Shown: one piece after another, positions 19,398 to 63,810 of the stretch
How positions within the stretch are numbered: position 1 is the first letter of the stretch
Layout: every line of letters starts with the position of its first letter
Assembly (NCBI GenBank): GCA_964016885.1
Contig: OZ024740.1
Span: forward strand, 352,532,001 to 352,596,000
Length of the DNA stretch: 64,000 bases
Direction of reading: 5' to 3'
DNA from: Eledone cirrhosa
Taxonomy: Eukaryota
Made by a program: the position numbers and the translations under genes
The notes under the pieces: model-generated
What the model saw: only the letters and a program-made list of their open reading frames with translations
Databases searched by the model: none
Told to the model about the DNA's origin: nothing

Positions 19398-19494
<97 letters not shown>

Positions 19495-19765: not shown

Positions 19766-21019
19766 TTGTATTAGAATGATATGAAAATATTTTATACACT
19801 AGATAAAAGATAAAGAAGGAGGTAGGAAGAGAAGGGGAAGAGGGAAGTGAGTAAGGTGGAGGGAGTCTTAGGGTTTAAGACTGTCAGACTAGTAGAGATT
19901 GTGAAGAGAGAATGTTTTGGCAGCAGTTAGCTTAATGAGGCGTGTTAAGGTTGGCTGGGAAGTAGATACTTCTAGTGGTGTTGTTCGGACAAAATTTAGT
20001 TAGAGGGGTCAAAGTGGTACAATGTCACAGACAAGTTATTAGGGCTATTCTAAGTGCGTCATTATAATATTCAGCATGCTCGTTGAAGGTCTGCAAATTA
20101 GACGACAGTCGGGAGATCCTTATGGATATATTTTTAGGGATAGATTTAATAATGGAATGAGGATGGTTCGATTTTACATTAACGTACTTAAGATTTTCAT
20201 TAAGTTTGTGAAATGGCTCTATATTACCGTTATTAAGGTTGAAGGTAACATCCAAGAAGTTGACCACCTTAAGATTGTGTTCAAAGGTAATATTAAGCCC
20301 TAGTTCTAAGAAAAGTTTCCTAATGTTTTTACGTCGCCTTTCTAGGTTTTGTTTGTTCATATTCTTGACTAATAGAAGTGTATCGTCGCGGTATATTCCG
20401 CCGTGGAGGTCCGTAAATTCGCTCTGGAGTCTATGGGCTATATAGATCCCAACCAAATCCGTGACCTCCGCCGAATCATTAGAACCCATCGTAATGTCGA
20501 ATTCCGAGGGTCTATCCCTGCGGACCCAATAACTATTTTCAAAGTGCACTACTGTGCGTCTAGCTTCAAGTATAATATTAATTTCCTCGTTTGTGAGGTC
20601 CGGGTTAGTCTTAGCGAAAGAGAGGGCCTTATGCAGGGTTTCGGGTGAAATAGAGGAATAGTATTCATCTATATCGAATTGAATAAAAGAAGATTTGTTT
20701 TTGTCCCTAATGTTATTGAACCATCTTATTGCCTGATGAGTATTACCTCATAATTTAATATCTACCTTAGCCTTAACTTGGGGGATAATACGATCTAATA
20801 TGTACTTACTAATCCTACCTATATCGGACTTTGAAGGACATATTAATCTAATTTTAGGGTTAGTATCGAAGTTATCCTTATGGTCCTTCAGATTAAAAGT
20901 CAGTGTAGCTGGGGATAGGGGTACCGTTCTGTCGTCAATTTTCAGTTTCCTAACAATATCACATGCTGCGTTATTCGTTTGAAAACGACTTTTTCTTTTC
21001 TTTTCTTTTTTTAAATGCA

Positions 21020-21208
21020 TATAATTGTTTCTACTTTAGGCACAAGGCCAGCAAATTACCCAGTGCATTACTGGTACTTTATTTTATCGACCCCGTAAGG
21101 ATGAAAGGCAAAGTCAACCTCGGCGGGATTTGAACTCAGATCATAAAGGGACGTAACTATGCTGGAAAGCATGGCGTCCGACCCTCTACCGATACTGCCA
21201 ATCCACCA
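21020..21208 (-). mobile_element. tRNA-type SINE
   Basis: Same family as 15944. Confidence 0.9.
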
Positions 21209-21605
21209 ATGTTACCTTTTTACACCAACGTTTGCAAATTTCTGTCATAAGATATGACTTTCTATAATAATAGTACTAAACACTGTTTTTCTGGACCCCT
21301 TTAGAAATAACCTGCTACTATAATAGCCCTAATAACTTGTCTGTGACATTGTACCACTTTGACCCCTCTAACTAAATTTTGTCCGAACAACACCACTAGA
21401 AGTATCTACTTCCCAGCCAACCTTAGCACGCCTCATTAAGCTAACTGCTGCCAAAACATTCTCTCTTCACAATCTCTACTAGTCTGACAGTCTTAAACCC
21501 TAAGACTCCCTCCACCTTACTCACTTCCCTCTTCCCCTTCTCTTCCTACCTCCTTCTTTATCTTTTATCTAGTGTATAAAATATTTTCATATCATTCTAA
21601 TACAA

Positions 21606-21722
21606 AGGTCTGATGACATGGTGTGTTGGCTTACAGTGTACTTTCGGTTTTGGATAATATTTGTGTATTATTCAAATAGCGAGGTATAGGTAACTCATAC
21701 ACTATAGAAACGATTGTTACCT
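21606..21722 (+). ncRNA. Type-I hammerhead, inverted copy of 19649-19765
   Basis: AGGT-CTGATGA...GAAA-CGATTG-TT-ACCT. Confidence 0.8.
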
Positions 21723-21760
21723 AATAAATTCTATATACCCACATTTCCATTTCGTAAATT

Positions 21761-21873
<113 letters not shown>

Positions 21874-21894: not shown

Positions 21895-23151
21895 TATATT
21901 TGGGGAGGGTCATATTTGCGTAATATTGCCAGAATTAATAACAGAACACACTCACTGTTTGGTTGGTTTTCGCTTGTCGCTGTCTTTTATATCTGCGATC
22001 TAACTTACTCGGTCCTCAATGTTGCCATTGACTGACCGGCGGTCAAAAATAATACAGATACAATATAGACACAAACACATATATATAGTTTACATAATTT
22101 ACATAAATCTTTCGTTGCACATCTGCAACATCGTCAGTGGTGTTATATTCATTGTTCCTCCTGTTGTGTTGTATGTCTACGCCATTTTTTATTCAGTCTG
22201 TCTATATATTTATTTATTTATTTGCTTGTTTGTTTATCTTATTTTATTTTGTCTTGTTTGCGTGTGTGTATAGTGTTATGTGTGCTATGTGACTAGTGTG
22301 TATAGTGTTGTGTCTGCTGGGTGACTAGTGTGTGTTTATGTGCTTGTTGTTATTGTGCTTGTGTATGTATTTATTTATCTTATTTTATTTTATTTTATTT
22401 ACTTATTTATACTTCTCTTAGGTCAGTGTTGTTTGTTTGGGTGTTGTTGTTGTTCCACTCATTCTTTCTGTTTAGCTTTGGTCTTCTAATTTCTATTTCA
22501 CTGGCCTCTCTGATTTGCCTATCTGCTGGGTCATTCCTATGTTTAGATATTATTCTAATTTCTATGTTGTCTATGTTACCGTCATGTTGTTGTCTAGCAT
22601 GTTCGTATAGTACTGACCCGTTTTTTCGTCCTTTTAGTTCCCCCCAGTGTTGGTCTATCCTTTCAGCTATGCTACGAGCTGTCTCACCTATGTATGTTGT
22701 TGTCATGTTTCTGCAAGTACCCTCTGTACATCTTATGCTATAGACTACGTTTCTAGTTTTACAGTTTATCCGGGGGTTCACCTTACATATGATACATTTC
22801 CTATTGGTACAGTGGGTTTTCTTAAAAGGGTAGGTTTTGCTGATCAGGGATTTTATGGTGGTTCCTGGCTTCTCTACCACCTTTATTTTTAAGTGGGTAC
22901 CATGATGTGGCCTTCCTTACCTTATGTCTAGCCCTATCTAAGCTGTTCTGGAATAGCTTAGATAGGGCTAGACATAAGATAGGGAAGGCCACATCATGGT
23001 ACGACAACCAGAGATATCAGAGTGTCATGTTTGTGGACGCCACCCCTGGAGGGAAATTAGCTAACCAGTGTAGAAAGGCCCTGAGAAAGACCCACTTAAA
23101 AGTAAAGGTGGTAGAGAAGCCAGGAACCACCATAAAATCCCTGATCAGCAG
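21895..23151 (-). mobile_element. Penelope-like element 3' part (GIY-YIG) with a fold-back at its truncated 5' end
   Basis: ORF 22407-22880 CKTRNVVYSIRC..YIGETARSIAERIDQH..RQIREASEI..PKLN. Palindrome centred at 22949-22950. Degenerate HHR at 22101-22140 (CTGACGA-T-GTTGCA/TGCAAC-GAAA on minus). Confidence 0.88.
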
Positions 23152-23930
23152 CGTGCAAGGACTTATTTGTGCATTACAACTCAGCCCTCCATAGAGGCTA
23201 TGTCCTAAATGAACTTACACGGATCACTAATAGATGCAGCGACCCGATGGGTGGTCTCACCCATACCACGCAATTCCGTAATCCACTCAAGTCTAATGGA
23301 TATCCCAAGCGACTGATTAACGGAATTAGAGACCCCAGACCCAATAGACAGACACCCACTAGAAACTTAGATAAAAGCAGGTGCTTCTTTAAAATCCCCC
23401 ACCTGAGTGAATATACCACGAACGCCATCCGCAGGGCCATACGGAGGGAGGGACTTGACATACATTTGGCCCACACAGGACCTTCGCTCCGAAGATGCCT
23501 CTCCACCAAACCCGACGAGTCAGATGGGACGTGTTCCCTCAGCAACTGCCCGATACGGGGGGCAGATTGCCTACGCACCTATGTCGTATATAAGATTCAA
23601 TGCGATAAATGTAACAAGTTTTACATAGGTAGCACCATCCGACCCCTACATGTTCGTATCAAGGAACATGTCAACACCAACGCATCTTCCTTCCGTAAAC
23701 ACATCCTTAAATGCGGAAACCCACAGCGCAGACCCTTGGTCACAGTCCTAGCGACTGAACGCAGCATCGGATCCTTAAGGATAAAGGAAGCACTTGTTAT
23801 TAAGAACCTCAGACCCCCACTTAACAACCGGGCTGAGAGAAATGAGCTGACATGGCTAATTTAACCATAGTGACCAGTAACAGCCCCTACGGCCTATTAT
23901 CTTTCACACGCACGCACTTATATGTATACC

Positions 23931-25935: not shown

Positions 25936-28817
25936 CTCCAGCCTCGGGGTCGCCGACCGCACGGAACCTCTAGACCCACGGACACCATACTTCACACTGA
26001 AGGACCATAAATCCGATTTTGACCGTAAACCCTCCATCAGGCTTATTAACCCAACGAAGTCCGACATAGGGAGAATCAGCAAAAAAATCCTAGACCGCGT
26101 GATACCAAAAGTCAAGCAACACACCCGACTTAGCCTATGGATCAACACCCAGGAAGTAATCTTCTGGTTCAGCAATATGGAGGATAAACGAGAAACTAAA
26201 TTCATACAGTTCGACATAGAGAGCTACTATGCTTCAATCACCTTACCGCTACTTACTGCCGCCTTGGACTTCGCCGAAACACTCGTGCCCATCACCGACC
26301 AGGAAAGAAAAATCATCCTCCACGCCAGGAAGACAGTCTTACTCTTCGACAACTCCAAATGGATAAAGAGAGCTGCCGACTCCCCCTTCGACGTCAGCAT
26401 GGGCGCCACGGATTCGGCGGAGGTCACTGATCTTATAGGATTATTCCTAATAGCCAAACTCACTGATATGTTTCCTGCATTCGGTGGTGGATTGTACCGT
26501 GATGATGGGCTCCTTACCCTTAAAGGGTACAACCCCAGTAGTACAGATCGGGTCCGGAAACAATTAATCAGATTCTTCCGCGACTGGGGATTTAAAATAA
26601 CCCTACAAACGTCCCTGACCCGAGTAAACTTCCTGGACGTAACCCTCGACCTCGAAAACGACATATATACAGGAAACCTAATGACAATCTGCACTACATC
26701 CACCGCCGATCAAACCATCCTAGGAACATCACAAACAACCTGGTCAAAAACATCTCCCTCCGCATATCCCGTTTGTCAGCTAATGAGCGGATATTCGATG
26801 AACATGCGCCTTATTACAACCAGGCCCTCAAGCGGAGTGGTTTCCGGGAGGAAATATCCTACTGTCCAGCTCCCATTAGCGGAACCAGCAGGAGACACCG
26901 CCGCTCACGCAATGTAACATGGTTCAATCCTCCCCACAACGCAGAGGTGACTACTCCCATCGGGAAACTATTCTTTAGGCTCATTGAAAAACACTTCCCA
27001 TTACAACACCGCTACCACAACATAATTAACAAAAATACCATCAAACTCTCTTACAGCACTACACCAAACTTCGCACAAAACATCGTCTCCTCTAACAACA
27101 AAAAACTCAACCCCGATGGCAGAAATAACCTAATTAGCAGTGGAGAACCGACCAGGAGGTGTAATTGCCCGGATAGATCTATTTGCCCACTCGACAATAG
27201 ATGCAGAGACCGTAATGTGATCTACCAGTGCAACGTGAGGACGGATACCTCCAACAAAGCCTATATAGGACTTACCGCATGTGACTTCAAGACCCGGCTA
27301 TACCAACATAGACATACCTTCCGAAACCCGGCCCGGCGTCACGCCACTACACTTTCGGGCCACATATGGGACCTCAAGGACAACAACATCACCTATGATC
27401 TCACTTGGAGATTACTGTCCAGAGCCAATTCTTACACGGGAGGACGCCGTCCGTGCAATTTATGCTCGGAGGAAACTTTACAAATGCTGTTTTCGACGGA
27501 CCAACTCCTAAACAAGAAAGATGAACTGGTTACTGCATGTAAACATAGATTGCGTAGGACTTACCTCGCCCTCAAACCCCATAATGACCCGGGGGGGGGG
27601 GGGGGGTAGACTAGGGCTATAACACCCCAGTTGCCGATTTTGCAATGGGTAACCCCTGCTTGCCAAGGAAGACGTAAGATCTTCTTTGTATTCTTTTATC
27701 GCTTCCTTTATTTCCTTCCCCCCTCTCTCCTTTGTCCTTCTACCCCAGCTCTTCTCCTTTGTCGGCGTCTTTTCTCGCCCACCCGAGGCTGCCCTTTGGC
27801 CCCATGTAGCCTTAGTACCCCCACCGCCCCTCCCCTAGTCTTTGATAGATTTGGCGGACTCCGCCCTTTATAGCAGTTGGCTTAGACCCCGGATATTTTT
27901 CCCCCTTTTACCGACCGCTCCCACTATTCTCTGTGCCCTCTATATTTCTTAGTGGCACATGCCTTATTTTTTCGTTTCAGTATTTCTTGCTTCGCTTTTC
28001 TTCTGGGCGGGGTGGATTCTGAATTTATTTCTCCGTATTCTACCTTTATTTCGTACGAACTTTCATGTAGCTTGTTTTAGATCTTTTAGAGTTAGCATTA
28101 GTATATATTTTTCTCGGGACTCAGAATTATTATCTCGTACAAGTTCACTTTGCTGCACTGGGTCGTTGCTGGCCCGGGATGGAAACCTATTGTTTATTTC
28201 GTGGTAGTCTCTTTAGTATTTTGGCCCCTTTTGTTGACCCGTCACCGTATCATTTACGTACTTATACCTCTTAAAAGGGTCCTTGCCTTATCCGTCCCAC
28301 CTAGTTCTCTTACTTATTTCCTTATTTATTTATTTATTTATTTATTTACTTCTTTCTTTCTTTCTTTATTTTATTCTCGCCTAACAATAGCCTGACACCT
28401 AGGTCGTAGAATTTAATTTACTTTACTTTTTTCTTTACACTTATTTGCTTTTCTTCACTCTCAGTATTTTTTCTTTCCTATTTCTACCCCCCATCGTTCT
28501 ACCTACCGTTCCGACTTCCTCCCCCTCCCCCTCCCCTGTATCCTCTTTGACCTCATGCCCAGCTGTAGCTGGCACTACCAACGCTTGATTGGGTCTACTC
28601 CACCCCCTCCCCTCTTTCTCCTACTGGCAGGTTTAGCCACCATCTCCCCTACTAATTTGCAACCACAGAATTACTACTGATTTTTGACAATCACTTTGAC
28701 CATATATGGAATTACCCCTTGAGAAGATCGGCTATTTAAATACCAGGATAAATTTTCATTTAGTCCAGAATTAGCCGTCGAAACGGCTTGAGCTCAGCTG
28801 TCGGGGTCTTACTGGTT

Positions 28818-29654: not shown

Positions 29655-29662
<8 letters not shown>

Positions 29663-31466
29663 CGTAAAATAAGAAAATATTTTTAAAAAAAATTTTAAAA
29701 AATTTTTTTTACTTACTTACTTAAATTTTCACTCCAACTAATTAGTTTCTGCAATGGGATAAAGACAGTTACGTAATTCAACTGTCGAGAATTCATTGCG
29801 TCATCAGGCAGTCTATTCTCAGTTAAGTCTCCAGGCAATGCGCGGACACTGGCGGCTCATATAAAAATAATAATAATTCGGTAGATAGAACAGCTGGCGA
29901 GGACTGGATTCTATGTACCGAAATTCTCACTGCTTCCAGTCAAATGGCCGATTCTAAAGAATCAATCACGTGACATAGAGGCTAGTTAGAAGGAATGGAA
30001 TGGTAAGATGACTGACGCCTACTAACACCCAAAAAAAAAAAAAAAAAATTTTTTTAGAAGTGGTTTTGGCAAGTTTGCTCGACAAATCAGTGATTTGGAG
30101 ATAAATATAGATAATTTAATATATCAACTAACATAAGCGCACAGATGCACGCCCATGCTAGCAAATACACAGGTTATGTCATAGTACCTAGGTGGTTCAA
30201 TGCAGGAGAATGCAGAACAATAATATAAAAGACGTAAAATAAGAAATATTTTTTAAAAAAATTTAAAAAATTTTTTTACTTACTTAAATTTTCACTCCAA
30301 CTAATTAGTTTCTGCAATGGGATAAAGACAGTTACGTAATTCAACTGTCGAGAATTCATTGCGTCATCAGGGAGTCTATTCTCAGTTAAGTCTCCAGGCA
30401 ATGCGCGGACACTGGCGGCTCATATAAAAATAATAATAATTCGGTAGATAGAACAGCTGGCGAGGACTGGATTCTATGTACCGAAATTCTCACTGCTTCC
30501 AGTCAAATGGCCGATTCTAAAGAATTAATCACGTGACATAGAGGCTAGTTAGAAGGAATGGGATGGTAAGATGACTGACGCCTACTAACACCCCCCAAAA
30601 AAAAATATTTTTTAGAAGTGGTTTTGGCAAGTTTGCTCGACAAATCAGTGATTTGGAGATATATATAGATAATTTAATATATCAACTAACATAAGCGCAC
30701 AGATGCACGCCCATGCTAGCAAATACACAGGTTATGTCATAGTACCTAGGTGGTTCAATGCAGGAGAATGCAGAACAATAATATAAAAGACGTAAAATAA
30801 GAAAATATTAAAAAAAAAATTTTTTTTAAATTTGTTTACTTACTTACTTAAATTTTCACTCCAACTAATTAGTTTCTGCAATGGGATAAAGACAGTTACG
30901 TAATTCAACTGTCGAGAATTCATTGCGTCATCAGGGAGTCTATTCTCAGTTAAGTCTCCAGGCAATGCGCGGACACTGGCGGCTCATATAAAAATAATAA
31001 TAATTCGGTAGATAGAACAGCTAGCAAGGACTGGATTCTATGTACCGAAATTCTCACTGCTTCCAGTCAAATGGCCGATTCTAAAGAATCAATCACGTGA
31101 CATAGAGGCTAGTTAGAAGGAATGGGATGGTAAGATGACTGACGCCTACTAACACCCCCCCGAAAAAAAAAATATTTTTTAGAAGTGGTTTTGGCAAGTT
31201 TGCTCGACAAATCAGTTATTTGGAGATAAATATAGATAATTTAATATATCAACTAACATAAGCGCACAGATGCACGCCCATGCTAGCAAATACATAGGTT
31301 ATGTCATAGTACCTAGGTGGTTCAATGCAGGAGAATGCAGAACAATAATATAAAAGACGTAAAATAAGAAAATATAAAAAAAAAAAATTTTTTTTAATTT
31401 TTTTACTTACTTACTTAAATTTTCACTCCAACTAATTAGTTTCTGCAATGGGATAAAGACAGTTAC

Positions 31467-31468
<2 letters not shown>
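29655..31468 (-). mobile_element. Retrozyme-like tandem array: 3.2 copies of a ~565-bp non-coding monomer, one HHR per monomer
   Basis: GACGTAAAATAAG at 29661, 30231, 30789, 31356. HHRs on minus at 29731-29812, 30294-30375, 30858-30939, partial at 31425-31468. (TA)n on both sides. Confidence 0.9.
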
Positions 31469-34095: not shown

Positions 34096-36737
34096 GTGAG
34101 TTTTATTGGCCGGTTCAACAAATTGAATAAGAAAAATAAACAAAAATTTATTCAATTTGATATTGCCAGCTACTATTCTTCTATTTCGCCCTCACTTCTC
34201 AACAATGCTCTATCTTTCGCTTACAAATATTCAGACATCACCACAGATGAACTTCACATCATTCTCACCGCACGTAAAACCATCCTAGAGCTCAACAATG
34301 AATATTGGACCAGAGCTGATACCTTTAACAACTTTGACATCACAATGGGAGCATCCGATTCATCCCAATTGACTGATTTAATTGGTATCTTTATTTTGAA
34401 CTCTTTGAATCGGAAAATTCCTCAACTTCGCGGTGGAATTTATCATGACAATGGACTCTTTACTATTTTAAATTGCAACATAGTTAACCTTAATATTATT
34501 AAGAACAATATACGTAATCTCTTTAACCAACATAACTTAAAAATTGAATTTGATAACAGCATCAAACTAGCTAATTTCTTGGATGTATCTCTTAACCTTG
34601 ACACTGGCCTATATTACCCTTACCATAAAAACAATTAGAACCTAAATTATGTTAATTTTAAATCTAACCACCCCACTAATATTAAGAATGCTATAGTTAG
34701 TAATATTGGAAAAAGAATATCTAACCTATCTTCTAATAAAAACATCTTTGATGCTAACGCCAATTACTATAATAACGCGCTTTCTAAAGCCGGTTATCCT
34801 GATAAAATCAAATATAGTAAAGAAGCAAATTCTAGAAGATCTTACAGTAGAATAATTAATCATGATCATTCCAATAACTTTAATAAAAGACCTAGATACA
34901 AAAACATAATCTGGTATAATGCTCCTTTCTCCATCTCTATTAATAATAATTGTTTCTACTTTAGGCACAAGGCCAGCAATTACCCAGTGCATTACTGGTA
35001 CTTTATTTTATCGACCCCGTAAGGATGAAAGGCAAAGTCAACCTCGGCGGGATTTGAACTCAGATCGTAAAGGGACGTAACTATGCTGGAAAGCATGGTG
35101 TCCGACCCTCTACCGATACTGCCAATCCACCGCCCTATTAATAATAATATTCCTAAATTATTCTTTAGTGCCTTAAATAAATGCTTCCCTCCCTCACATA
35201 TCTATAGTAAAATATTTAACAAACACACGATAAAATTCTCCTATTCGACCTCCTCCAACATCTCCAACATTATCTCTAAACACAACAATAAAATACTAAA
35301 TACTAAATCTCTTCCTTCCAACACTGAATATCATAATAATAGTAATAGTACTCCCGACGTCATTGTTAACTCTAGGCTAATTTCTGCAAACCCAAATACA
35401 ACGTCAAACGCAACTTCGCTAAATGTTCTTAATCCCATTCTAAATCAAGAAACTATTATTCCTATCGTAAATAACTTCTCCAATCCAATCTCTTCTATAG
35501 ATAACACTAGGTCACTTGTTAATAACTCTGTTAATCTCTCTAATCGCAATTGCAATTGCCCTGTTAAAAATAAATGTCCTCTCAACAACCATTGTCTTGA
35601 AAAAAACTTAATCTACGAATGTAAAGTTATAACTGACACCAATTCCTTTACCTATTTTGGTCCACTTCCACCTCCTTTAAAGCTCGTTTTTATAATCATC
35701 ATTCGTCTTTTAAATACCAACTTAAAAGAACCAACACGGCACTCTCAGAACTCATATGGTCCTAGAAAGACAAAAATATTAACTATAACATCTCTTGGAA
35801 AAAGGTTTCTTCTGCTTCTTCATACTTGAACAGTTCTCTATCCAAGACATGCAATCTCTGTTTATGTGAAAAATTTACCATTATATCTAATTTAGATTCT
35901 ATAATAAATAGACGCACTGACTTGTTCTCTCTCTGCTTGCATAAATTCCACAGAACATTCCATAAAGTATACAGCTAATATCTAATACTTTACCAATTTA
36001 AAATCCTTTTCTCAAAGGCACACATATATATATATATACATATATATTTCTTTAAAAATATACCCATCTTTCTACCTTATTTCAATGTTATTTATTATAC
36101 ATTATATAATACTAGTTACTCATTCTATTTCACTCCTATTTATCACTTCCCTTTCTTTCTTTTCCCTTTTTCTTTTCTTTTCTCTTTCTTTTAATTTCTA
36201 ACCCCTAATCTGTACCTTTTCTTCCTAGACACTTCTCAATTATCATTGTGCCTAACGTAGAAACAATTATTACACAGCACAATATATTCTTACTTTATAT
36301 CACCTTAAAAAAATCCTTCGTAAACATAAACATTTTTTTGACGTTAGATTATTCATCCTCAATTCATTATTTTTTTCTCCCTTTCATGCTCATCTAACTT
36401 ATACATATTACACTTATTCATCCTCTCTTCTACTTCTTTCACAATATATCCTTAATTACATTACTATTGCTATATTTTTATATTTTTTAATAATACATAT
36501 CAACAATTTCTTTCCATCGCACATATTATTAAACCCTTAAATATTATTCTTAATACATATTAACAATTTCTTTTCATCGCACATATTATTAAACCCTTAA
36601 ATATACAAACCTTAATTTAACATTATTCTAAAATTTTTCTCTTCGTTAATTTTCAAATTCTTTTAATTTATATATTATCTTCCAACGGTTTTTCAACCTC
36701 TCAATGTAAAACAATATATTTTTCTCAGTTATAAAAG

Positions 36738-39129: not shown

Positions 39130-40095
39130 AAAAATACGGACGAAACCATGGTAGAGATATAATTACGGTATGTACACATTTCTTCTAAGTTTGAATTTAC
39201 ACCTAATTGTGTATGCTTGACGGTATATTTAGTCAGTTTCTACATGCTGTTGAAATGTTGGATAAATACTCTATTGGGGCCACCACGAAGAGGCCGCTTT
39301 CGGTTATTTGTCGGAAATTCCTTCATAGGAGCCATTATTCTTATAACCTGGTCTAATTGATTTTTTTATATGGTTAATTATGCTAATTGGGAGAGGAAAT
39401 GGTATATATTTTATCTAATAATTCTAAGGACATGATTTATGATATATTGCTCTGATTATTTAATTTATTAATTCTTCACTGAGCCACAACGTGACCGGTT
39501 GCAACATATATATCTATGACTTTATGTATATGTAAATCTTTATATTTAATAATCTCCCGTTAGGTTGAGATACAATTGGGCGATATTGGGATGCGCTTTC
39601 TAGCAACAAGCCTACTCGCCGTAAGCAACTAATCACATTCTTTCTAACTTGACCACTGGCACGTCACGATTCTTAGCCATTTTTGAATCTATTTTTGGCG
39701 CGATCACTTTGGAAAATTAAATGTCTAATTTTGAGTTTTTCTCCTGATGAGTCTGTTACTCCGGATATCCTGATAATTGGATGTCTAAAAATACGGACGA
39801 AACCATGGTAGAGATATAATTACGGTATGTACACATTTCTTCTAAGTTTGAATTTATACCTAATTGTGTATGGTTGACGGTGTATTTAGTCAGTTTCTAC
39901 ATGCTGTTGAAATGTTGGATAAATACTCTATTGGGGCCACCGCGAAGAGGCCGCTTTCGGTTATTTATCGGAAATTTCTTCATAGGAGCCATTATTCTTA
40001 TAGCCTGGTCTAATTGATTTTTTATATGGTTAATTATGCTAATTGGGAGAGGAAATGGTATATATTTTATCTAATAATTCTAAGGACATGATTTA

Positions 40096-40100
<5 letters not shown>
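39130..40100 (+). mobile_element. Second retrozyme-like/pLTR tandem: ~1.5 copies of a 657-bp monomer; full HHR 39740-39814, half HHR 39131-39157
   Basis: ACGGACGAAACCATGGTAGAGA with GAAA at 39142 and 39799. TCTC-CTGATGA-GTCTGT...ACGGAC-GAAA-CCATGG-TA-GAGA. (TA)n on both sides. Confidence 0.85.
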
Positions 40101-40130: not shown

Positions 40131-42999
40131 GTATAGGATTATCCTAGATGCAGTAATGGTTAATTACTACACTGGATATGGTTGACGTACAGTGAGAGGT
40201 TACTCAACGAGTTATGGAAGAATTGTTGAAGAAACTTAGTTCCTGATCCTTCTGTATTCCGCAGTGTAGATAAAGAATGAATAATAACAGGTAGACATCA
40301 TAAAAAGGTAATTTATTCCGTGTGCTTACAAATGTTTCCACGGTGGTTGTACAGCCTAGTTATGCTATGTGCAAATTTACAACTATTTGCAAAACTCAAT
40401 TATCAAATGCTGTGACCACTGTATCATCAGAGCAGAATGGTTAAAATGTATAATGTAAATACCCTTAAGTGAGGTTATTGGAGAAGATAGAGTAGAAAAG
40501 GAAGAGAGAAAAGAGGAGGAGAGGAAGAGAGAGAGAAAGATATGCAGGGGTTGGAGACATAGGAGAGAGTGGTTTGTAGATATCTTAATCAAAATGTTAT
40601 GGTAGGGGTTTTATTATACTGGTTACTCTTAAAGTGACCACCTTAAGCGATGCATTGATAGTCAAGGTTGGAATTATTTATTGCCCCAGAGGGCAGGTTC
40701 ATAGATGTGGAGAGGGAGGGAGGTAGGCTTAAGGCGAGAGAGAGTGGAATGGATATAGAGGGAGAGATAGAGAGGGGACAGACGAAAGCTATGGGGTAGG
40801 TGAACTTTGGGTTCGTAGTAGTAATCTGCGAATTGCACTAAGTTACCATTTATAGTGATAAGCAGGGTATTGCCTTGTAGTGTGGGGGAAGAGAAGGTGG
40901 TTAGCTAGAAAACAATGTTATAGTTACGGGTTCGAATGTTAAGTTATTTTATAGTGAGAGAATTTAGCTTTTAGTTTGTGGTTACAGTATAATGATCGTT
41001 CGATTCTATCGTTAAGTAGTTCATTTTTGGATTTTAAGATGTAAAAGAGTTCAAGGTTACATAACCTACAGTACTTCAATCCACTCCGATATGCACTTGC
41101 GCTGGAAAGTATATCCCATTTTAAGTGAACTGTTGGTTGCGTTCACGGAGTTGCTAGGTCTTGTTGGCGAGCGTGGTCACAAAACGGTGATCAGGATGTT
41201 TAATTGAGAATCGATGATGGTACCAGCGAGATTTAAACGAGGTGGTGGTAGACCCGATGTAATACCATTTCTGGTCGTTCGATTCAACCGTGCATTGGTA
41301 AACAATGTTGGACTTTAGGCATTTATTCTTTAATGGACATCTTTCAGGTAGATGACAGTTACAGTTTTTGTTGTGGGTAGCGGGTATACCATGGATAGGT
41401 TGTGATAACAGTACAGGTGGGTTGTGTAATACCCGTCTCCCATTTTGGGAGGCAGATATTACGTTCTGCCCATCTGTTATCAAAATATTTTGTTTTGTAG
41501 TGTTGTTTAATTGCTTTAAGTTAAGTTTTTTTATGTATGCTTCAAGGTTTGGTGCCGTGGAATATGATAGTCTAATAGTTTTAGAGTTCAGAATTTTACT
41601 GTATTTATGGGAACTAGGGAAATGCTTGTTGATTAACTTAAAGAATGAAAGAGATAGTTTTGTACTAATCGAGGCATTAAAAATAGGATTATACCAGATA
41701 TACTTTCTACAACGTGATTTATTTGGTGATGATTTTCTATTATTAGTATGTCTGGTGGTACTGCGTGTGTGTGCTTGTATTTTAGTCCCCCGGTTACGTA
41801 TTCCTTGATTTCGTGTAGAGCTATGTGTGTTATGGAGATTCTTATCAATGTATTCTATTGTATCCCGGTGGTTGGCATTCCTTAATGCATTATTATAGTA
41901 TTCAGCGTGTTCATTAAAAATCTCAGTCAGACGATAGGCGAGAGATTCTAAGAGAAATACTACGGGGAACCGATTTGATCATGGAAAGTGGGTGGTTTGA
42001 GTTAAAATTGATATAAGTAAGGTTCTCATTTATCTTGTGGAAGGGTCGTATCAGTCCGGTATTTAAATTAAGAGTTACGTCTAGAAAATTTACTACTTTA
42101 AGATTGTATTCGTATGTTATTTTTAGACCCAATTCACTAAAAGATTTTCTAATAATTTTCCGTAGCCTTTCAAGATTTTGGTTATTTAAGTTATTAACTA
42201 ATAAGAGCTCGTCATCTCTGTATATTCCCCCCTGTAGATTACTAAATTTACTATGTAGTATGTGGGCTATGTAAATTCCCACGAGATCCGTGACCTCCGC
42301 GGAGTCGTTGGAACCCATGGTAATGTCGAAGTTTGTGGGTCTGTCCTTACGTTCCCAGTAGCAGTTATCAAACTTGATAATAGTTTTTCTAGCCTCGAGA
42401 ATAATATTAATTTCGTCCTCCGTTAGGTCGGAATTGACTTTAGCAAACGATAGGGCATTTCGTAAAGTGCCGGGTGAGATTGAAGAGTAGTATTCGTCTA
42501 CGTCGAATTGTATAAACTTAGATTTATTCTTGTTCTTAACGTTATTAAACCAGCGAATTGTTTCGCTAGTGTTGCCCCATAATTTAATTTCAATTTTCTT
42601 TTTCACTTGAGTTATTACTCTGTCAAGTATATGTTTGCTAATTTTTCCTATGTCTGATTTAGAAGGGCATATAAGTCTAATCTTAGGGTTAGAGTCAAAA
42701 TTTACCTTATGGTCCTTCAGGTTAAAGGTGGGGGTTGCGGGTATAATCGGCTCGGTTCTATCGTCTATCTTGAGATTCTTCACCACTTTGTATGCCTCGT
42801 TGTTAATATTTGCTAGCGTAGTTTCACTTGTTTTTCTATATTTTTGTGTAGTTCATTGCGTATGAAGTTATTGTACGTATCGATATCCATGGTATACACG
42901 TTAGAGGTCTTGTCAGCTTTCACAACAATTCCATTGGTATTTTGCAGTCTTCGGAGTAGTGCTTTCATGTTGCTCTGCAGCTCATTATTTCTATGTTTG

Positions 43000-43849: not shown

Positions 43850-45705
43850 ATGCAAAGATTTATGTATAACATAAACCAGAAGATGTATAATATAAACCAG
43901 AACATATATAATTTTTCATGGTATGCTGGTAGCCAGCGAGCTGGACAGATCGGTGATTCCTTGATTATCATTAGGAGTTAAATCTCTATGAATAGTTCCT
44001 AGATTTCTATTATTAATTTTAGTTATAAAGGCGGTGGATTGGCAGTATCGACTGAGGGTCGGACACCATGCTTTGCAGCATAGAGTTACGGCCCTTTATG
44101 ATCTGAGTTCAAATGCCACCGAAGTTAACTTTGCCTTTCATCCTTACGGAGTCGATAAAATAAAGTACCAGTCATGCACTGGGATCGATTTAATCAACTT
44201 TCCCCAAAATTGCTAGCCTTGTTCCTATATAAAAAAAACCCATTAATTTTAGCTATATTTTGGGCAATGTTCTTAGTGGTTGAGTATGAGAGTTTAATTG
44301 TATGTCTATTAAAATTCTACTATATTTATGCGTTTTGGGGAAGCATTTATCAAGAGCATTGAAGAAAAGGTGAGCTAAGTTTTTCTTGATTCCTAGAAAT
44401 AGTGGTGGAGAATACCATAAAATAGAACGAGAACGAATTCTTTTATATGACTTATTGGTTTTATAGGAGTTATATCGATTATAAGATGATTTGACCTAGT
44501 TCTGTCGCTTAAGTTACGGATATTAACATTATTACAATGGCAGTATCGGTAGAGGGTTGGACGCCATGTTTTCTAGCATAGTTACGTCCCTTTACAGTCT
44601 GAGTTCAAATCCCACCGAGGTTAACTTTGCTTTCATCCTTACGGGGTCAATAAAATAAAGTACCAGTAATGTACTGGGTAATTGCTGGCCTTGTGCCTAA
44701 AGTAGAAACAATTATTACAATTGTTGTGAGATGTATATGTATTAGTATTTATATTAAATGAATGTTGATTTATATACGGGGAGGGGGTGTAAGCATGTTT
44801 ATCTATGTATTCAATTTTATCAGGTTAACCTGTTCTATTTAATGCATCGTTATAGTATTTGGCCTTATTGTAAAAAAATTTTTTATTGGCTGAGAGTGTA
44901 GAGATTCTTTGCTGAATACTATTAACTATAGCCCTTTCAACATATCTAGGGTGGTTTGAATGGAAGCTAACATAATTAAGGTTTTCATGGAACGGGTAGT
45001 AAAAGCCAGAAATAAAGTTTAATGTTATATCTAGGAAATCAACTATTCTATTATTATATTCAATTTCGAGTTTAAGACCGTAATTGTTAAAAAGATCAGT
45101 TATAATTTTCTCTTTTCTATTAAGGGCGCTATTATTATGGTTAATTACTACAAAAAAGAGCATCATCTCGATATAAACCTCCGCCAAGCTCAGGTAATCT
45201 TCTGTGAATTAGGTTAAGAATGAAAATTCCAATGAGGTCGGTGACCTGAGCTGGGTCTGTGGGTCCCATAATAATGTCAAAATTTCCAGGTCTATTGGCT
45301 CTAGTCTATAGATCAACATTGAAATCAATTATAATCTTTCTAGCAGTAAGGATAATATTAATTTTATCAGTCGAAAGACCTGTATGTTTTGTTGCGTATC
45401 ATAAGGCGTTGTTAAGTAACGCCGGAGAAATAGAAGTGTAGTAATTGGTTATATCCAGTTGAATAAATTTGGTCTTGCTTTTACTTTGAAGTTTGGTGAA
45501 CCAGTCGATAACCTCATTGGTACTATTCCATAATTTTAGTTGAGATCGAAACTTTAGAACTGGTATGATTCTGTCCAAGATGTTTTTACTATAAGTCTGA
45601 CAGGTAGCTCGGATTCAAAATTGTCCGTATGATTTTTCATATTTAACTTCGGTATTTTAGGTATAAAATGTTCAGTTCTGCGTTCAATCCCAAGTTTAAA
45701 AACAA
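43850..45705 (-). mobile_element. Decayed Penelope-like RT with two SINE insertions (44030-44225; 44537-44716 with TSD ATTATTACAAT)
   Basis: KFIQLDITNYY, VDFLDITLN, SNHP, SIQQRISTLS, IKLSYSTT on minus; many stops. Confidence 0.85.
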
Positions 45706-46159: not shown

Positions 46160-48571
<2,412 letters not shown>

Positions 48572-52194: not shown

Positions 52195-52198
<4 letters not shown>

Positions 52199-52330
52199 AA
52201 ATATAAACAGAAATAACAACACAAACGGTACAGTATAGGGAAAGAATATATTAGTTTAACGCTTGAAATAGCAGGAAGAGGTCTTAATATTTTGGACCGT
52301 AGTCCTTCATCAGAAGAAAGAATGAGAAAT
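52195..52330 (-). mobile_element. Solo pLTR of the 46160 family with degenerate HHR (52282-52317)
   Basis: Reverse complement of 48400-48530; GAAA mutated to AAAA. Confidence 0.75.
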
Positions 52331-55639: not shown

Positions 55640-55862
55640 GTATGTAAAAGGGATACAGAAATAACAACACAATCGGTACAGTATATGGAAGGGATATATT
55701 AGGTTAACGCTTGATATAGCAGGAAGAGAGTCTTAACATTTCGGACGCTAGTCCTTCATCAGGAGAAAGAATGAGAAATAAGATAGATTGAGGGGACGGG
55801 CGGGTTGGAATTGGGAAAAATGTATTTAGATAAAAATAACAGGTCCATTCATGTTGACATCT
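55640..55862 (-). mobile_element. Solo pLTR of the 46160 family with HHR (55731-55766)
   Basis: CTGATGA-AGGAC-TAGC-GTCC-GAAA-TGT-T-AAGA on minus. Confidence 0.82.
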
Positions 55863-56018: not shown

Positions 56019-56054
<36 letters not shown>

Positions 56055-56057
<3 letters not shown>

Positions 56058-56213
56058 GAAAGACGTAAAATAAGAAAATTATAAAAATTTATTTACTTAC
56101 TAAAATTTCACTCCAACTAATTAGTTTCTGAAAGAGAATAAACATGGTTTCCGATTGGAACAACATGGAGAAATATCCTTTCGTCATCAGGGAGATCTGT
56201 TCTCAGATCTCCC
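56055..56213 (-). ncRNA. Third variant of the array-type hammerhead (56110-56195) plus tail, inverted against a PLE ORF
   Basis: CTCC-CTGATGA-CGAAAGG...TCTTTCA-GAAA-CTAATTAG-TT-GGAG. The tail ATGAAAGACGTAAAATAAG is shared with the 29655 and 61340 arrays. Confidence 0.85.
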
Positions 56214-57315
56214 ATGTTAGTTTTTATTCTAATCATCCTAAAAGTGTTAAGAATGCAATAGTTAACAGTGTACAACAACGAATATCCAGGCTGTCTGCTT
56301 ATAGATCCATATTTAATAGTAAGGCTGTATATTATAATGAAGCGTTACATAAATATTGAGTATATAGAAAAAATACTGAAAATAAAATTAATTATAATCA
56401 CAGTAATCATAATAAAAATGAATATAAAAACAACTTGATGAATAAATCAGGAAAAAAAATAAGAACTAGATCTATAATTTGCTATGCTCCGCCAGCATCT
56501 TTAGCTATTAAAACACCTGTCGCACATTTATTTTTTAAAGCTTTGGATAAATGCTTCCCTGGGTCACATAAATATTACTCTATCTTCAATAGACACACAG
56601 TTAAACTTTCTTATTCAACAACTATGAATATTGGTCAAAATATAGCAAAAATAAATAATAAAAGTCTTAATTTGAACCAACCTATAATTAGCAATAATAA
56701 CAATAATAATAGTTTTCAACTAGCAATAACCACGCCTCGGATAACCCTCATTGGCTATGGTAACAATACATTAGTTAATGGGAATAACAATAATAATAGT
56801 TTAAACACGAATAATAGTAGAAGACCTTTAAATAATAATGTGAATAGTTTAAGGTCTGTAAATAACATTCAGAAGAAATGTAATTGTAGAAAGAGGTCTG
56901 AATGTCCTTTACAAAATAATTGTCTTGACAAGAATCTAGTATAGAAATGTACCATTAAAACAAATAATAATAGATATAACTACATAGGTGCCACTTCATC
57001 TAAATTTAAGGAACGTTGGTATAATCATAGACATTCTTTCAATAAACCAGATAAGAAATGTTCAACTTCACTTTCACAATTAGTATGGTCTTTAAAGGAC
57101 AATAATATTAAATACTCCATCTCTTGGACGAAATTAAAGATTGCTACTTCCTATCAGAACTCAACTATTTCGCAAATTTGCAATCTTTGTAACCTTGAGA
57201 TTCTACAGATAATTACAAATTATGACAATTTAACAATTATTTAGTAGTTGTCATCATAAAATTGGTAAAAATTTCCAGGCAATGGATAATTTTCGAAAAA
57301 ATATTGACAATTAAT
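56213..57315 (+). mobile_element. 5'-truncated Penelope-like element (Hydra-like; thumb + GIY-YIG), decayed
   Basis: SNHPKSVKNAIVNSVQQRISRLS; VKLSYSTT; CNCRKRSECPL; YNYIGATSSKFKERWYNHRHSF; CNLCNLE. Confidence 0.9.
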
Positions 57316-58548
57316 AATTTAAATATATATATAAGTTTTGCCTTATTGCGATAATAATTTATTGATATTTATATGTATTAGAATAATTTCATTAAGAGTC
57401 TCGTTATCCTATGCTTTGATTAGGACAGTTCAATATTTAATTAGACATCAATTATGATATATACAATAGCTGTTTTATGGCTTTCGAAATATCGCTGGAC
57501 GTGAGAGTAGAGATAAGTTATAAATGTTTGTATATGGTGAATGAATTATCTTCCTTTTGTTTACATTGTCCGTAAAAATTTCTTTTCTTTTTGACTAGCT
57601 TGCTAAAATATATTAAATATGAAATATGTAGATTAATAATATATAGACTATCATTAAAAGGAAACTATATATCAAAATAAGTAAATATAACCTTTCATTA
57701 AATTAATGAAATAAAATTTTACAGTTTAATCCTAGGAATTAAATATAAATTAAAGAATAGTAAAGATTTTATAAAGAAAATATCCTAATTAAATAAAATA
57801 ATTTGGGTAATAAATAATCTAAATATATTATATGTATTGATGGTGATATACGCATGGTATTATATTTTAATACATATTTAATAATTATTTAAATACGCTT
57901 TAAAGATGAATTCTTTTAAAGTTGTAACAAAATATTTATAGAATATCTTACCTTAAAATTAAAAATTATAATAATCTATAATAAGTTAAATTAAATTATA
58001 TAAATTTATAATTAAACTAAATATGTGATTGCTATAGAAAGTAATTTATACTGATTAATTTTGATATAATATATAAGTATAATTAACTAAAGCATAATCA
58101 AATACAAGAGATATTCTATTGTTTATGTGAATAGATTTGATGTCTTATTTGATCTAACATTTGAAAACAACGTTTTTTTATTATCCCCCTCTATTCGATG
58201 TTCCCTTATTTTTCTTTACCCCTCTTTGTTCCCTTTTACTTTCCCCACACCTTACCTCTCTTTTGTCGTTATTCCTCTTTTCTTTTTTGTATATTTCTTT
58301 TATTCATTCATCCATTTATTTTTTTAATCATTTATCTAGTCATGTATGTATTTATTTATTTATTTCTTGCCTTTCCTCTTCTTTACACCTCCTCTTATAT
58401 CTCTAATTTGCTCAACGTCCTTTTCTTCTTTAAGTTTATCTTATTATTTGTGATATAAAAAGGTTGAGATTTGATGAAATAAATCACTGCCAATACTGGA
58501 ATTGAATAATCAAGACCGTAGCGGTATGTCATATATCAAATCATATAT

Positions 58549-58608
58549 TTTGTCTGATGAGGACGTACTGAAAAAACAACACAGTACCTTTGAAATATAT
58601 ATAATAAA
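58549..58608 (+). ncRNA. Type-I hammerhead
   Basis: TTTGT-CTGATGA-GGACGTACTG...CAGTACCTTT-GAAA-TATATAT-A-ATAAA. Confidence 0.78.
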
Positions 58609-58652
58609 GTATATATTTTGATTATGAGAATATTTTTCATTTGTTAACATTT

Positions 58653-58698
<46 letters not shown>

Positions 58699-60651: not shown

Positions 60652-60899
60652 AGTGTGTGTGGTGTCGACCTAAACCAGTTTTGCTCTATGACTACGAGAG
60701 ACAAAATAATCGAAATATTTTTAGTTTCAAAAGATCCCGTTAAGGGTGAAAGCAGCGATTCTTTGCTTGAACTTTAATTTGTTATTTTAATATATATATA
60801 TATATATATATAATTATAGATTCTTGTACAGATATTTTTGCATACACAAAAACAAAATATAAACAAACGTATTTATTTCACGAAATAGCTTTTTTTTTT

Positions 60900-61085
60900 T
60901 TATCTAAAGACATATTTTCCAATTTCACCCCGCCCGTCCCTTCAATCTATCTTATTTCTCATTCTTTCTTCTGACGAAGGACTAGCGTCCGAAACGTTAA
61001 GACCCTTTTCCTGGTATTTCAACCTAATATATTCCTTCCATATACTGTGCCGATTGTATTGTTATTTCTGGTTACCTTTTACATA
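60900..61085 (+). mobile_element. Solo pLTR of the 46160 family with intact minimal HHR (60967-61002)
   Basis: TCTT-CTGACGA-AGGAC-TAGC-GTCC-GAAA-CGT-T-AAGA. Confidence 0.88.
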
Positions 61086-61239
61086 CATATATGTATATAT
61101 ATATATAGTCGGGACTTTGAAGAAAAAATAGGTATATTTTTGTCTATTATTTCCTCATATTTTATAATTTGATATATACATATAATTACCCGATAGATGA
61201 ATATGAATAAGTATTATATATATATATATATATCCATGT

Positions 61240-61288
61240 CATGTTTGATGATCCTGTGAGTGCACAGGTGAAACTTCAGAGCAACATG
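61240..61288 (+). ncRNA. Degenerate hammerhead; partial inverted copy at 63472-63521, related fold-back at 54290-54392
   Basis: CATGT-TTGATGA-TCCTGTG-AGTG-CACAGGT-GAAA-CTTCAGAG-CA-ACATG. Confidence 0.65.
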
Positions 61289-61305
61289 ACTCATCTATTA
61301 GCCAT

Positions 61306-61339
<34 letters not shown>

Positions 61340-61344
<5 letters not shown>

Positions 61345-63146
61345 GACGTAAAATAAGAAAATTAAAAAAATTAAAAATCAACTTACTTACTAAAATTTTC
61401 ACTCCAACTAATTAGTTTCTGTAAGGGGATAAATATAGTTACGTAATATAACTATAGAGAATTCCTTACGTCATCAGGGAGTCTATTCTCAGCTAAGTTC
61501 CCAGGCGATGCGCGGACACTAGGAACCCATATAAAAATAATAATTCAGTGGATGGAATAAAGCTAGCGAGGACTAAATTCCAGAGCACTGAAAAAATTCA
61601 CTGCCTCTGGTCAGTGGCAGATTCTAAAGAATCAGTCACGTGACACTGAGGTTAATCAGTTAGGAGCGGGGTGGTATTATGACAAGAGCTTACTACTACC
61701 ATGAATCAGCAGTAAATTTTGGCAAGTTTTGCTCAACAAATAATTTGGAGATAAATATAGAGAATTAGTACATCTACCAACATATGTGTACAGATGTACA
61801 CCCATGCTAGCAAATATATATGTTATGTCTTAGTACCTTTGTGGTTCTATGCAGGGGAATGCAGAACAATTATATGAAAAACGTAAAATAAGAAAATTTT
61901 AAAAATTAAAAATCAACTTACTAAAATTTTCACTCCAACTAATTAGTTTCTGTAAGGGGATAAATATAGTTACGTAATATAACTATAGAGAATTCCTTAC
62001 GTCATCAGGGAGTCTATTCTCAGCTAAGTTCCCAGGCGATGCGCGGACACTAGGAACCCATATAAAAATAATAATTCAGTGGATGGAATAAAGCTAGCGA
62101 GGACTAAATTCCAGAGCACTGAAAAAATTCACTGCCTCTGGTCAGTGGCAGATTCTAAAAAATCAGTCACGTGACACTGAGGTTAATCAGTTAAGAGCAG
62201 GGTGGTATTATGACTAGAGCCTACTACTACCATGAATCAGCAGTAAATTTTGGCAAGTTTTGCTCAACAAATAATTTGGAGATAAATATAGAGAATTAGT
62301 ACATCTACCAACATATGTGTACAGATGTACACCGCCTGGGAACTTAGCTGAGAATAGACTCCCTGATGACGTAAGGAATTCTCTATAGTTATATTATGTA
62401 ACTATATTTATCCCCTTACAGAAACTAATTAGTTGGAGTGAAAATTTTAGTAAGTAAGTTGATTTTTAATTTTTAAAATTTTCTTATTTTTCGTCTTTCA
62501 TATAATTGTTCTGCACCCCCCTGCATAGAACCACAAAGGTACTAAGACATAACATATATATTTGCTAGCATGGGTGTACATCTGTACACATATGTTGGTA
62601 GATGTACTAATTCTCTATATTTATCTCCAAATTATTTGTTGAGCAAAACTTGCCAAAATTTACTGCTGATTCATGGTAGTAGTAGGCTCTTGTCATAATA
62701 CCACCCCGCTCCTAACTGATTAACCTCAGTGTCACGTGACTGATTCTTTAGAATCTGCCACTGACCAGAGGCAGTGAATTTTTTCAGTGCTCTGGAATTT
62801 AGTCCTCGCTAGCTTTATTCCATCCACTGAATTATTATTTTTATATGTTTTCCTAGTGTCCGCGCATCGCCTGGGAACTTAGCTGAGAATAGACTCCCTG
62901 ATGACGTAAGGAATTCTCTATAGTTATATTACGTAACTATATTTATCCCCTTACAGAAACTAATTAGTTGGAGTGAAAATTTTAGTAAGTAAGTTGATTT
63001 TTAATTTTTTAAATTTTCTTATTTTACGTCTTTCATATAATTGTTCTGCATCCCCCTGCATAGAACCACAAAGGTACTAAGACATAACATATATATTTGC
63101 TAGCATGGGTGTACATCTGTACACATATGTTGGTAGATGTACTAAT

Positions 63147-63148
<2 letters not shown>
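61340..63148. mobile_element. Retrozyme-like array, ~535-bp monomer, tandem then inverted tandem; HHRs 61401-61482 and 61932-62013 (minus), 62358-62439 and 62893-62974 (plus)
   Basis: Homologous to the 29655 array; orientation switches at ~62333; microsatellite on both sides. Confidence 0.92.
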
Positions 63149-63180
<32 letters not shown>

Positions 63181-63247
63181 GTGGTAGAACACTGGAAGGT
63201 AATATCCGTAGTGGTAGAGCACTCAGTCCATGGGACGAGTTAGGTAG

Positions 63248-63395
63248 AAGTGGTTACACAACAGTTAGTTCACCATACCGAGAACAATTGTTTCACCTTA
63301 GCGAATCCTCAGCTCGTAATGGTCCATTACGAGCTGAGGACCCGCTAAGGTGAAACAATTGTTCTCGGTATAGTGAACTAACTGTTGTGTAACCA

Positions 63396-63398
<3 letters not shown>
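63248..63398. mobile_element. 150-bp palindrome with two head-to-head minimal hammerheads (63279-63316 minus, 63330-63367 plus)
   Basis: Centre GTAATGG-T-CCATTAC. CGAG-CTGAGGA-CCCGCTAAGGT-GAAA-CAATTG-TT-CTCG. Confidence 0.85.
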
Positions 63399-63475
<77 letters not shown>

Positions 63476-63810
63476 GGCTAATAGATGAGTCATGTTGCTC
63501 TGAAGTTTCACCTGTGCACTCGATATACGGTAGTTCTTTATACGGTAAATTCACAGATACGGTTTTGGGTAATTACTACCATCAATTCTATTTACGGTAA
63601 AAAATTTCACAGATACGGTTTTTGGTCGTGTTTGGTTTATATTGTACCGTAGCGCCACCTGTAGTAAGCAATAAATTCCCCCTTGAATTCGTGGAAACTG
63701 ACAGCTATTCGAATTCTAGGAAAATTGTGTTACTACTGCTATCATACTAACTGACCTTACCGAGAAACTGGCCAATCACGAGCGAGTTCAGATATTGGTC
63801 GATGACGTAA

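Follow-up and report, generated by a model that had tools for sequence, protein, structure and literature searches.

A back-to-back hammerhead retrozyme array in a TA microsatellite of Eledone cirrhosa, most likely a parasite of Penelope-like elements

Which retrotransposon mobilises animal retrozymes is a question raised by a repeat array near the end of a 64,000-nt stretch of the Eledone cirrhosa genome (assembly GCA_964016885.1, contig OZ024740.1), referred to here as the window. The window is composed of AT-rich, microsatellite-dense DNA. Retrozyme repeats are described as showing no motif that reveals the mobilising retrotransposon (PMC7761336). Mobilisation by Penelope-like elements (PLEs) has already been proposed (PMC7229834; 10.64898/2026.07.22.740005), and the preprint of Li, Clavereau & Pollet (2026) treats retrozymes as non-autonomous PLE derivatives, for which it gives only co-occurrence and the phylogeny of terminal repeats as evidence (10.64898/2026.07.22.740005). 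The array also bears on a second question, namely how PLEs build their tandem and inverted insertions (PMC8557442).

The array at 61341-63150 is composed of a non-coding hammerhead repeat of ~535 nt and, judged from its sequence features, is an animal non-LTR retrozyme with a PLE-type ribozyme variant. An earlier note on this DNA had described about 1.9 copies running one way, a strand switch at ~62333 and about 1.5 copies running the other way, all nearly identical, with four hammerheads and a ~535-bp monomer akin to that at 29655. Self-BLAST and cut-to-cut alignment, with the ribozyme strand taken as sense, agree with this description. They give 1.86 minus-strand units and 1.53 plus-strand units (Table 1), and the copies are 97.1-98.3% identical (E 0 to 1e-80, far beyond chance). 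The units are 531-535 nt long and 76% identical to the 29655 monomer (83% with gaps excluded), and four type I motifs are present, two per arm.

The geometry, ends and target of the array are matters of direct observation. The arms abut by their 5' ends, with the two 3' ends on the outside, each in microsatellite. Each arm contains just one complete cut-to-cut unit. The left arm starts at unit position 139 and ends 65 nt beyond its last cleavage site, and the right arm starts at unit position 434 and ends ~176-186 nt beyond its own, carrying a ~115-nt tail that is missing from the left arm's end. The right-arm end was taken from the alignment, in which the (AT)4 at 119 nt past the cut is internal and not the true end. 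At 62333 the arms overlap by 1 nt (C), or by 3 of 4 nt if one mismatch is permitted.

Table 1. Coordinates of the array, its relatives and the neighbouring PLE fragments in the window
Feature	Positions	Strand	Basis
(AT)n target tract; left-arm 3' end merges in at unit position ~66-70	61309..61340	.	
Left arm, 397 + 531 + 65 nt = 1.86 units	61341..62333	-	self-BLAST, alignment
Type I hammerhead motif, cut predicted before 61405	61400..61483	-	
Complete cut-to-cut unit L1, 531 nt	61406..61936	-	alignment
Type I hammerhead motif, cut predicted before 61936	61931..62014	-	
Head-to-head junction, unit positions 139 and 434 joined	62330..62334	.	
Right arm, 102 + 535 + ~181 nt = 1.53 units	62333..~63150	+	self-BLAST, alignment
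Type I hammerhead motif, cut predicted before 62435	62357..62440	+	
Complete cut-to-cut unit R1, 535 nt	62435..62969	+	
Type I hammerhead motif, cut predicted before 62970	62892..62975	+	
(CT)n(AT)n tract at right-arm 3' end	~63146..63180	.	
Sister array, three complete 563-567-nt units and partial ends	29655..31467	-	
Third relative, 154 nt: hammerhead and common 3' end, 79-82% identical	56053..56206	-	
5'-truncated Hydra-like PLE, ORF fragment 56207-57214, ends in (TA)n	56207..58654	+	
PLE fragments	20043-20954, 25940-27564, 34147-35960		mapped-back protein
PLE fragments	40948-42989, 44212-45679, 56207-57214		mapped-back protein

Retrozymes are recognised by at least two tandem units with a complete type I motif, by the lack of coding sequence and by a GC content below 50%. 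Each arm has two such motifs 531-535 nt apart, as scored with our own pattern scan as against the published rnabob descriptors. Unit R1 has 35.5% GC, a longest ATG ORF of 42 aa and a folding z of -4.75, and the unit has no tblastn match to 31 PLE-like proteins. The 64-kb window contains no tRNA gene. A bacterial promoter scan, which has no bearing on an animal element, stayed at chance level. The array was also considered as an autonomous Hydra-clade PLE and rejected as such; it has no ORF for an RT with a C-terminal GIY-YIG domain and, being non-coding, is not classed as an autonomous PLE.

The marks of a PLE insertion are present. Both arms contain a partial tandem with a 5'-truncated upstream copy, an inverted 5'-truncated copy adjoins the 5' end head-to-head at 62333, and a 3' tail is found at one end only (65 vs ~181 nt past the cut). 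The earlier note had called the tandem-plus-inverted arrangement typical of PLEs, and it does match the published layout (PMC8557442, PMC3846280, PMC8969392). Back-to-back tandem runs in a TA microsatellite are a Penelope-like footprint, which makes the retrozyme most likely a parasite of PLEs.

In the ribozyme of each unit, helix I is open and 4-5 bp long. The core CUGAUGA is followed by an extra C, helix II has 6 bp and a long inner stem, and a further extra A stands before GAAA; helix III is palindromic, and the cleavage triplet is GUU. The core boxes are intact; the base of helix II, which pairs C·A, departs from the canonical core. No Rfam hammerhead model matches the array, either at the gathering score or at E up to 5. 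The conservation of the fold is observed directly: 96% of cells are paired across 8 motifs (5 distinct) from three subfamilies, and slid controls reach 32-49%. Four pairs in the ribozyme helices have two-sided changes across the three subfamilies, compensatory changes occur in helix II and elsewhere in the unit, and 10/139 consensus pairs have two-sided changes when the whole unit is compared with the sister array. The structure was drawn from the same, related sequences, and the covariation is therefore support and not proof.

Folding predicts that the isolated ribozyme motif misfolds, with its core pairing to the palindrome. The active fold of a single motif lies at -14.6 kcal/mol and the MFE at -20.5 kcal/mol (5.9 lower), and the A-U pair adjoining the cut has a pairing probability of 0.11 in the single-motif fold. 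The active dimer at -41.2 kcal/mol is close to two separate monomers at -41.0 kcal/mol, with a dimer MFE of -50.6 kcal/mol. The predicted picture is a monomer that is blocked and a dimer that is feasible. Weak or dimer-only cleavage would let the RT pass the cut sites, as in both arms and in the sister array.

The earlier note had expected transcription from either side to give both long dsRNA and cleavable monomers. Folding supports half of this expectation. The equilibrium fold of the whole plus-strand transcript contains 691 pairs between bases over 250 nt apart, and each of the two ribozyme cores is taken up by its antisense copy. The arms are head-to-head, so a transcript that enters from either flank makes the antisense copy first. 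In this model the read-through RNA would be a hairpin of ~700 bp that would tend to block cleavage and is a plausible silencing trigger. Free monomers would need an internal transcription start or fast co-transcriptional cleavage.

Two relatives of the unit are found in the window. The sister array is tandem only, is flanked by (TA)n and has its 3' end point in common with the left arm. The 154-nt relative is fused head-to-head to the ORF fragment of the Hydra-like PLE. The common 3' end point lies 57-65 nt past the last cut (about 78 in the longer sister unit) at three loci. Outside the assembly, three public sequencing runs of one sample have 2016, 2292 and 2089 contigs that match a single unit at 85% likeness or more. 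A second organism has 39 contigs on the unit, some with loose ends that by eye resemble the sister array. The unit contigs of the first sample have many variant positions, and their depth figures are not copy numbers; the contig counts fit a large, diverse repeat family. This retrozyme family is a new family of a known class.

The candidates for a helper are the PLE fragments of the window, which match full-length RT-EN proteins. A 309-aa RT fragment at 41926-42852 matches 31 of 2641 candidate proteins of 575-806 aa at 35-47% identity, and one of these 31, mapped back, marks six fragments (Table 1). The Hydra diagnostics DKT (in one place), CxCX5C (in four places) and GIY-YIG-like motifs occur among the fragments. 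The neighbours of the array have the features of the Hydra clade, namely DKT, a CxCX5C linker, a C-terminal EN with CxxC and CxH, a hammerhead and (TA)n, an assignment made by comparing motifs with the published description (PMC8557442). A Pfam search on 7 PLE fragments gave one GIY-YIG domain above its cut-off, with RVT_1 and PDZ below theirs. Neptune- or Penelope-like fragments are also present in the window. A relaxed scan found 22 hammerhead-like motifs in the window, some probably by chance.

Against the PLE model stands that the unit's exact hammerhead and 3' end are on no autonomous PLE within the window, and no sense-orientation copy of them occurs at any PLE 3' end there. The Hydra-like PLE at 56207 has its own hammerhead of another family, cut before 58604. 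The sole link between the retrozyme family and a Hydra ORF in the window is the inverted 154-nt piece at 56053-56206. The best tblastn result of Hydra-like proteins against the unit had an E of 0.48, which is no match. The Neptune- or Penelope-like fragments of the window, the non-canonical ribozyme core without an Rfam match and the predicted misfolding of the motif also tell against the model.

The fragment 56207-57214 carries an antisense stretch at 56666-56777 (minus strand) that corresponds to a 5' part of U4 snRNA (Rfam, 52.8 bits). It lies within the asparagine-rich RT-EN linker and leaves the frame of ORF 56360-56944 unbroken. The arrangement recalls the N-rich linker inserts described for rotifer Penelope (PMC3846280). 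At the mixed junction at 56190-56215, a 7-nt stretch is the reverse complement of the preceding bases, like a short snap-back of a cDNA end.

The earlier note had proposed a survey of other loci for the same inversion design, and four more head-to-head insertions were found within the window. The five insertions were picked by eye from inverted repeats, and the motif of the 63160-63470 pair, which is not one of the 22 motifs of the relaxed scan, was also spotted by eye. All five hammerhead-bearing insertions measured have unequal 3' ends, which lie 46/162, 45/131, 43/134 and 34/102 nt past the cut in the four others and 65/~181 nt in the array. The head-to-head architecture is, by this count, ordinary for the Eledone cirrhosa window and genome.

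In the head-to-head insertion at 19490-21850, two 446-nt 3' pieces start at the same base and enclose a 1.27-kb RT fragment without endonuclease; here, too, helix II of the hammerhead pairs C·A at its base. A head-to-head pair at 22407-23150 comes from a different, possibly Neptune-like PLE, has a 10-nt spacer and is interrupted at the right by another GIY-YIG element at 23145-23864. Adjoining the array, a small head-to-head insertion at 63181-63397 contains a 157-nt near-perfect palindrome with a hammerhead-like motif per arm and a ~68-nt tail on one arm. Around the entire nest of insertions, two 48-nt pieces at 61258-61305 and 63474-63521, which are another hammerhead-like relic, are 100% identical and stand tail-to-tail; the pair may be an inverted flank duplication made at (TA)n.

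Other repeats are dispersed through the window. A short family with a compact hammerhead-like motif is found at 48322-48534, 52197-52328, 55640-55861 and 60894-61086 and ends near (TA)n in the copies inspected. The 312-nt direct repeat 39130-39441 / 39787-40097 (97% identity), with a hammerhead-like motif at 39738-39816, is possibly another partial-tandem element. A SINE-like repeat of ~180 nt occurs at 15944-16123 and about 13 further places, with most pieces 81-98% alike; we presume a resemblance to cephalopod SINEs. LINE-like RT fragments at 3-1573 and 8680-9081, inverted, flank a 4.6-kb (ATAT/ATAC) tract at 3320-7955, and a further LINE-like fragment lies at 13070-13831.

The earlier note had attributed the array to PLE machinery, including the inverted 5' copy. 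We infer the same: the target is (TA)n, the tails are unequal, the arms stand head-to-head and fragments of the Hydra type lie nearby, all of which can be seen in the sequence. We consider it likely that the array is a non-autonomous hammerhead retrozyme that was inserted by the RT-endonuclease of a Hydra-clade PLE. A multi-unit RNA, either an uncleaved multimer or a ligated circle, would be bound by the PLE protein. The GIY-YIG endonuclease would cut (TA)n, which has the same sequence on both strands, and both DNA ends would prime RT inside the RNA, downstream of the ribozyme cut. Priming would occur at positions ~66-70 on one side and ~176-186 on the other, aided by short UA-rich pairing. 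Each RT would then pass two ribozyme sites and halt at an arbitrary point, the two cDNA ends would be joined with a 1-nt overlap to give head-to-head arms, and the copies would decay afterwards at scattered private sites. What this model adds to the observations is which enzyme acted, what form the template had, in what order the two primers were used and that the ribozyme is active.

In vitro work offers a parallel. In purified form, a PLE protein cut AT-rich DNA on both strands and extended each of them; its RT began at two internal sites that lie downstream of the hammerhead, and uncleaved RNA was a usable and indeed the preferred template (PMC11167929). The cutting of both strands and the two internal starts fit two primings, one per side of the (TA)n cut. 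The in vitro start site is non-homologous to the target (PMC11167929). In the array, 17 of the 535 unit positions start a TA-alternating run of at least 4 nt, and both outer ends lie at such internal runs. The longest TA run of the unit, at positions 120-127, is unused as an end, and two of the comparison insertions have at most a 1-nt match at the short end; pairing alone therefore does not set the start. Both flanks are microsatellite, so no TSD is visible at the array; animal retrozymes that have a TSD have one of more than 4 bp. Shared variants (1/14 columns) do not separate a circle from a homogeneous multimer as the template.

Neither arm is contained in the other, as each holds sequence that is missing from its partner. 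This, together with the fusion of retrozyme and Hydra sequence at 56206, favours two separately primed cDNAs over self-copying. The junction at 56206 would reflect either two RNAs copied into one break or, if 56053-56206 is the lost terminal repeat of this PLE, the element itself; both readings tie the retrozyme family to the Hydra element. Two successive insertions are also possible there. More generally, PLE inverted copies might be produced by two RT complexes, one at either end of a single (TA)n break and each copying a separate RNA, with retrozyme circles copied for more than one round from both ends. This generalisation is tentative. If it were true, the array and the 56206 mixed junction would be a fossil record that names the Hydra clade as the retrozyme helper, and the two-RT reading would explain the tandem/inverted layout of PLE insertions.

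Other origins of the inversion have to be weighed. The L1-style twin priming model explains inversions by a second primer on the same RNA. Applied here, the same element and enzyme would use one linear multimeric RNA of at least 3.3 units, and the second DNA end would anneal near the point where the first RT stalled. The left-arm 5' start (139) does lie 43-47 nt from the right-arm 3' end (182-186), but on a 535-nt circle chance would give so small an offset with a probability of 0.16-0.18, which is not significant. Two points would suit a long linear template: a PLE RT can take uncleaved RNA (PMC11167929), and a single ribozyme motif is predicted to cleave weakly. However, at 19490-21850 the two arm starts lie 1666 and 400 nt upstream of the cut, neither of them close to where the other arm ends, and two different sequences are joined at 56206. 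Twin priming is therefore unlikely. A later event at the DNA level, in which a tandem insertion folded back, self-primed or was repaired at fragile (TA)n without a second RT event, is more improbable still. Palindromic PLE junctions have been interpreted as self-priming (PMC3846280), near-perfect palindromes occur in the window (63245-63401), the 48-nt flank copies around the nest are fully identical, and the two terminal copies share column 41 of the alignment. The junction at 62333, however, has no hairpin or extended microhomology. With ~115 nt extra on the right and 295 nt of extra 5' sequence on the left, neither arm is a plain copy of the other without an additional between-unit slip.

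The array could also have begun as a solo PLE terminal repeat and become a satellite that spreads by unequal crossover or gene conversion, with the hammerhead as a relic and no RNA intermediate now. The 2026 preprint discusses how a PLE terminus could be amplified locally and reports that 8/9 tested Xenopus dimers were uncleaved (10.64898/2026.07.22.740005), and the array motif is non-canonical and predicted to misfold. Such an origin is very improbable given that the arrays are short and dispersed, have non-integer copy numbers, keep one 3' end point in (TA)n across three loci, and have compensatory changes in helix II and elsewhere in the unit. Finally, the earlier note had named a fold-back assembly or read artefact as what would undo its reading. 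Inverted repeats in microsatellite-rich DNA assemble poorly (PMC8557442), and the junction at 62333 is known here from the assembly. A read fold-back, however, would be expected to yield identical, symmetric arms. The mirrored arms differ by 9 substitutions and one 4-nt indel over 702 columns. With arm-end columns excluded, 13 of 14 substitution columns are private to a single copy, as is the indel, and 8 of the 13 private changes are transitions; the one shared column, column 41, lies at a homopolymer boundary. The right arm extends ~115 nt past the left arm's entry into (TA)n, and the mirror therefore does not reach the flank; the loop is ~290 nt. The asymmetry and the private differences argue against a fold-back artefact, as does the same design in four other insertions of the window, and we give this explanation hardly any credence.

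The public sequencing runs weigh neither for nor against the junction. Part of the array is contained in 8 of the 11 runs listed, and at least half of it in 3 (one sample, one study); no RNA run is among the listed holders, which has no bearing on expression. The joint expected for this junction, 62572/62870, does not occur among the four joints listed from the contigs of four runs; rare forms tend to be lost from contigs, and at many majority positions the sample is unlike the unit. Joints between opposite strands occur at 62435/62500 and at 62443/62554, but each was found in one contig of one run at 85% likeness, near the reference edge, and carries little weight.

As far as its sequence can tell, the array is thus a genuine and well-formed insertion of a retrozyme. 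It carries a PLE-type ribozyme and the full set of PLE insertion marks, and it was probably made by a Hydra-clade enzyme. The class and its PLE link are published and head-to-head insertions are common in the window, which makes the array useful as an example but not surprising. Its layout gives a way into the formation of PLE inverted copies. Many natural events can be counted in one genome with a non-coding family of high copy number whose units are short, whose ends are fixed and which forms mixed junctions, and the unit is a small RNA substrate for in vitro assays with a Hydra-clade protein.

Compared with known systems, the array resembles animal non-LTR retrozymes (PMC7229834; 10.64898/2026.07.22.740005) in its tandem units, which are non-coding, low in GC and carry a single type I hammerhead, its highly paired predicted fold, its co-occurrence with PLEs and its dispersed short arrays. 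Its unit of 535 nt is above the 150-450 bp given in PMC7229834 and within the 51-972 bp of the preprint. Unlike theirs, it has a ribozyme of the PLE variant kind, in which helix II is long and bulged and pairs C·A at its base. Tertiary contacts between loop 1 and loop 2, a mark of the canonical hammerhead, are mostly absent from mussel retrozymes. The text consulted of PMC7229834 and 10.64898/2026.07.22.740005 mentions neither arms inverted head-to-head, nor 3' ends fixed inside the unit, nor a target of (TA)n. The word "inverted" is absent from the former and stands only in the reference lists of the other two retrozyme papers searched. No prior report of inverted retrozyme insertions was identified in the openly accessible literature searched. 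The insertion signature is new for retrozymes as far as that literature goes.

Among PLEs, the Hydra clade and the general PLE layout (PMC8557442; PMC3846280) share with the array the partial tandems, the inverted 5'-truncated copy at the 5' end, the one-end tail, the (TA)n target and a hammerhead close to the 3' end; (TA)n is where Hydra families insert (PMC8557442). The array differs in being without an ORF, in having two multi-unit arms and in lacking a palindrome at the junction, and its tail is ~115 nt as against the 30-40 nt published for PLEs. With the PLE hammerhead variants (PMC4209133) it shares the extra nucleotide after core position 9, the palindromic helix III/loop 3 that suits dimers and the within-family compensatory changes, whereas its second extra base (A) before GAAA is its own, the conserved G-C pair lies one step outward, and its helix III has 3 bp and a loop of 4 nt. 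The non-autonomous elements of Chlamys, such as MRC1 (PMC8557442), are also non-coding PLE derivatives with multicopy head-to-tail insertions. The MRC1 type depends on PLEs with an N-terminal EN, mostly without hammerheads (PMC8557442), whereas the Eledone array carries a hammerhead and sits among Hydra elements with a C-terminal EN.
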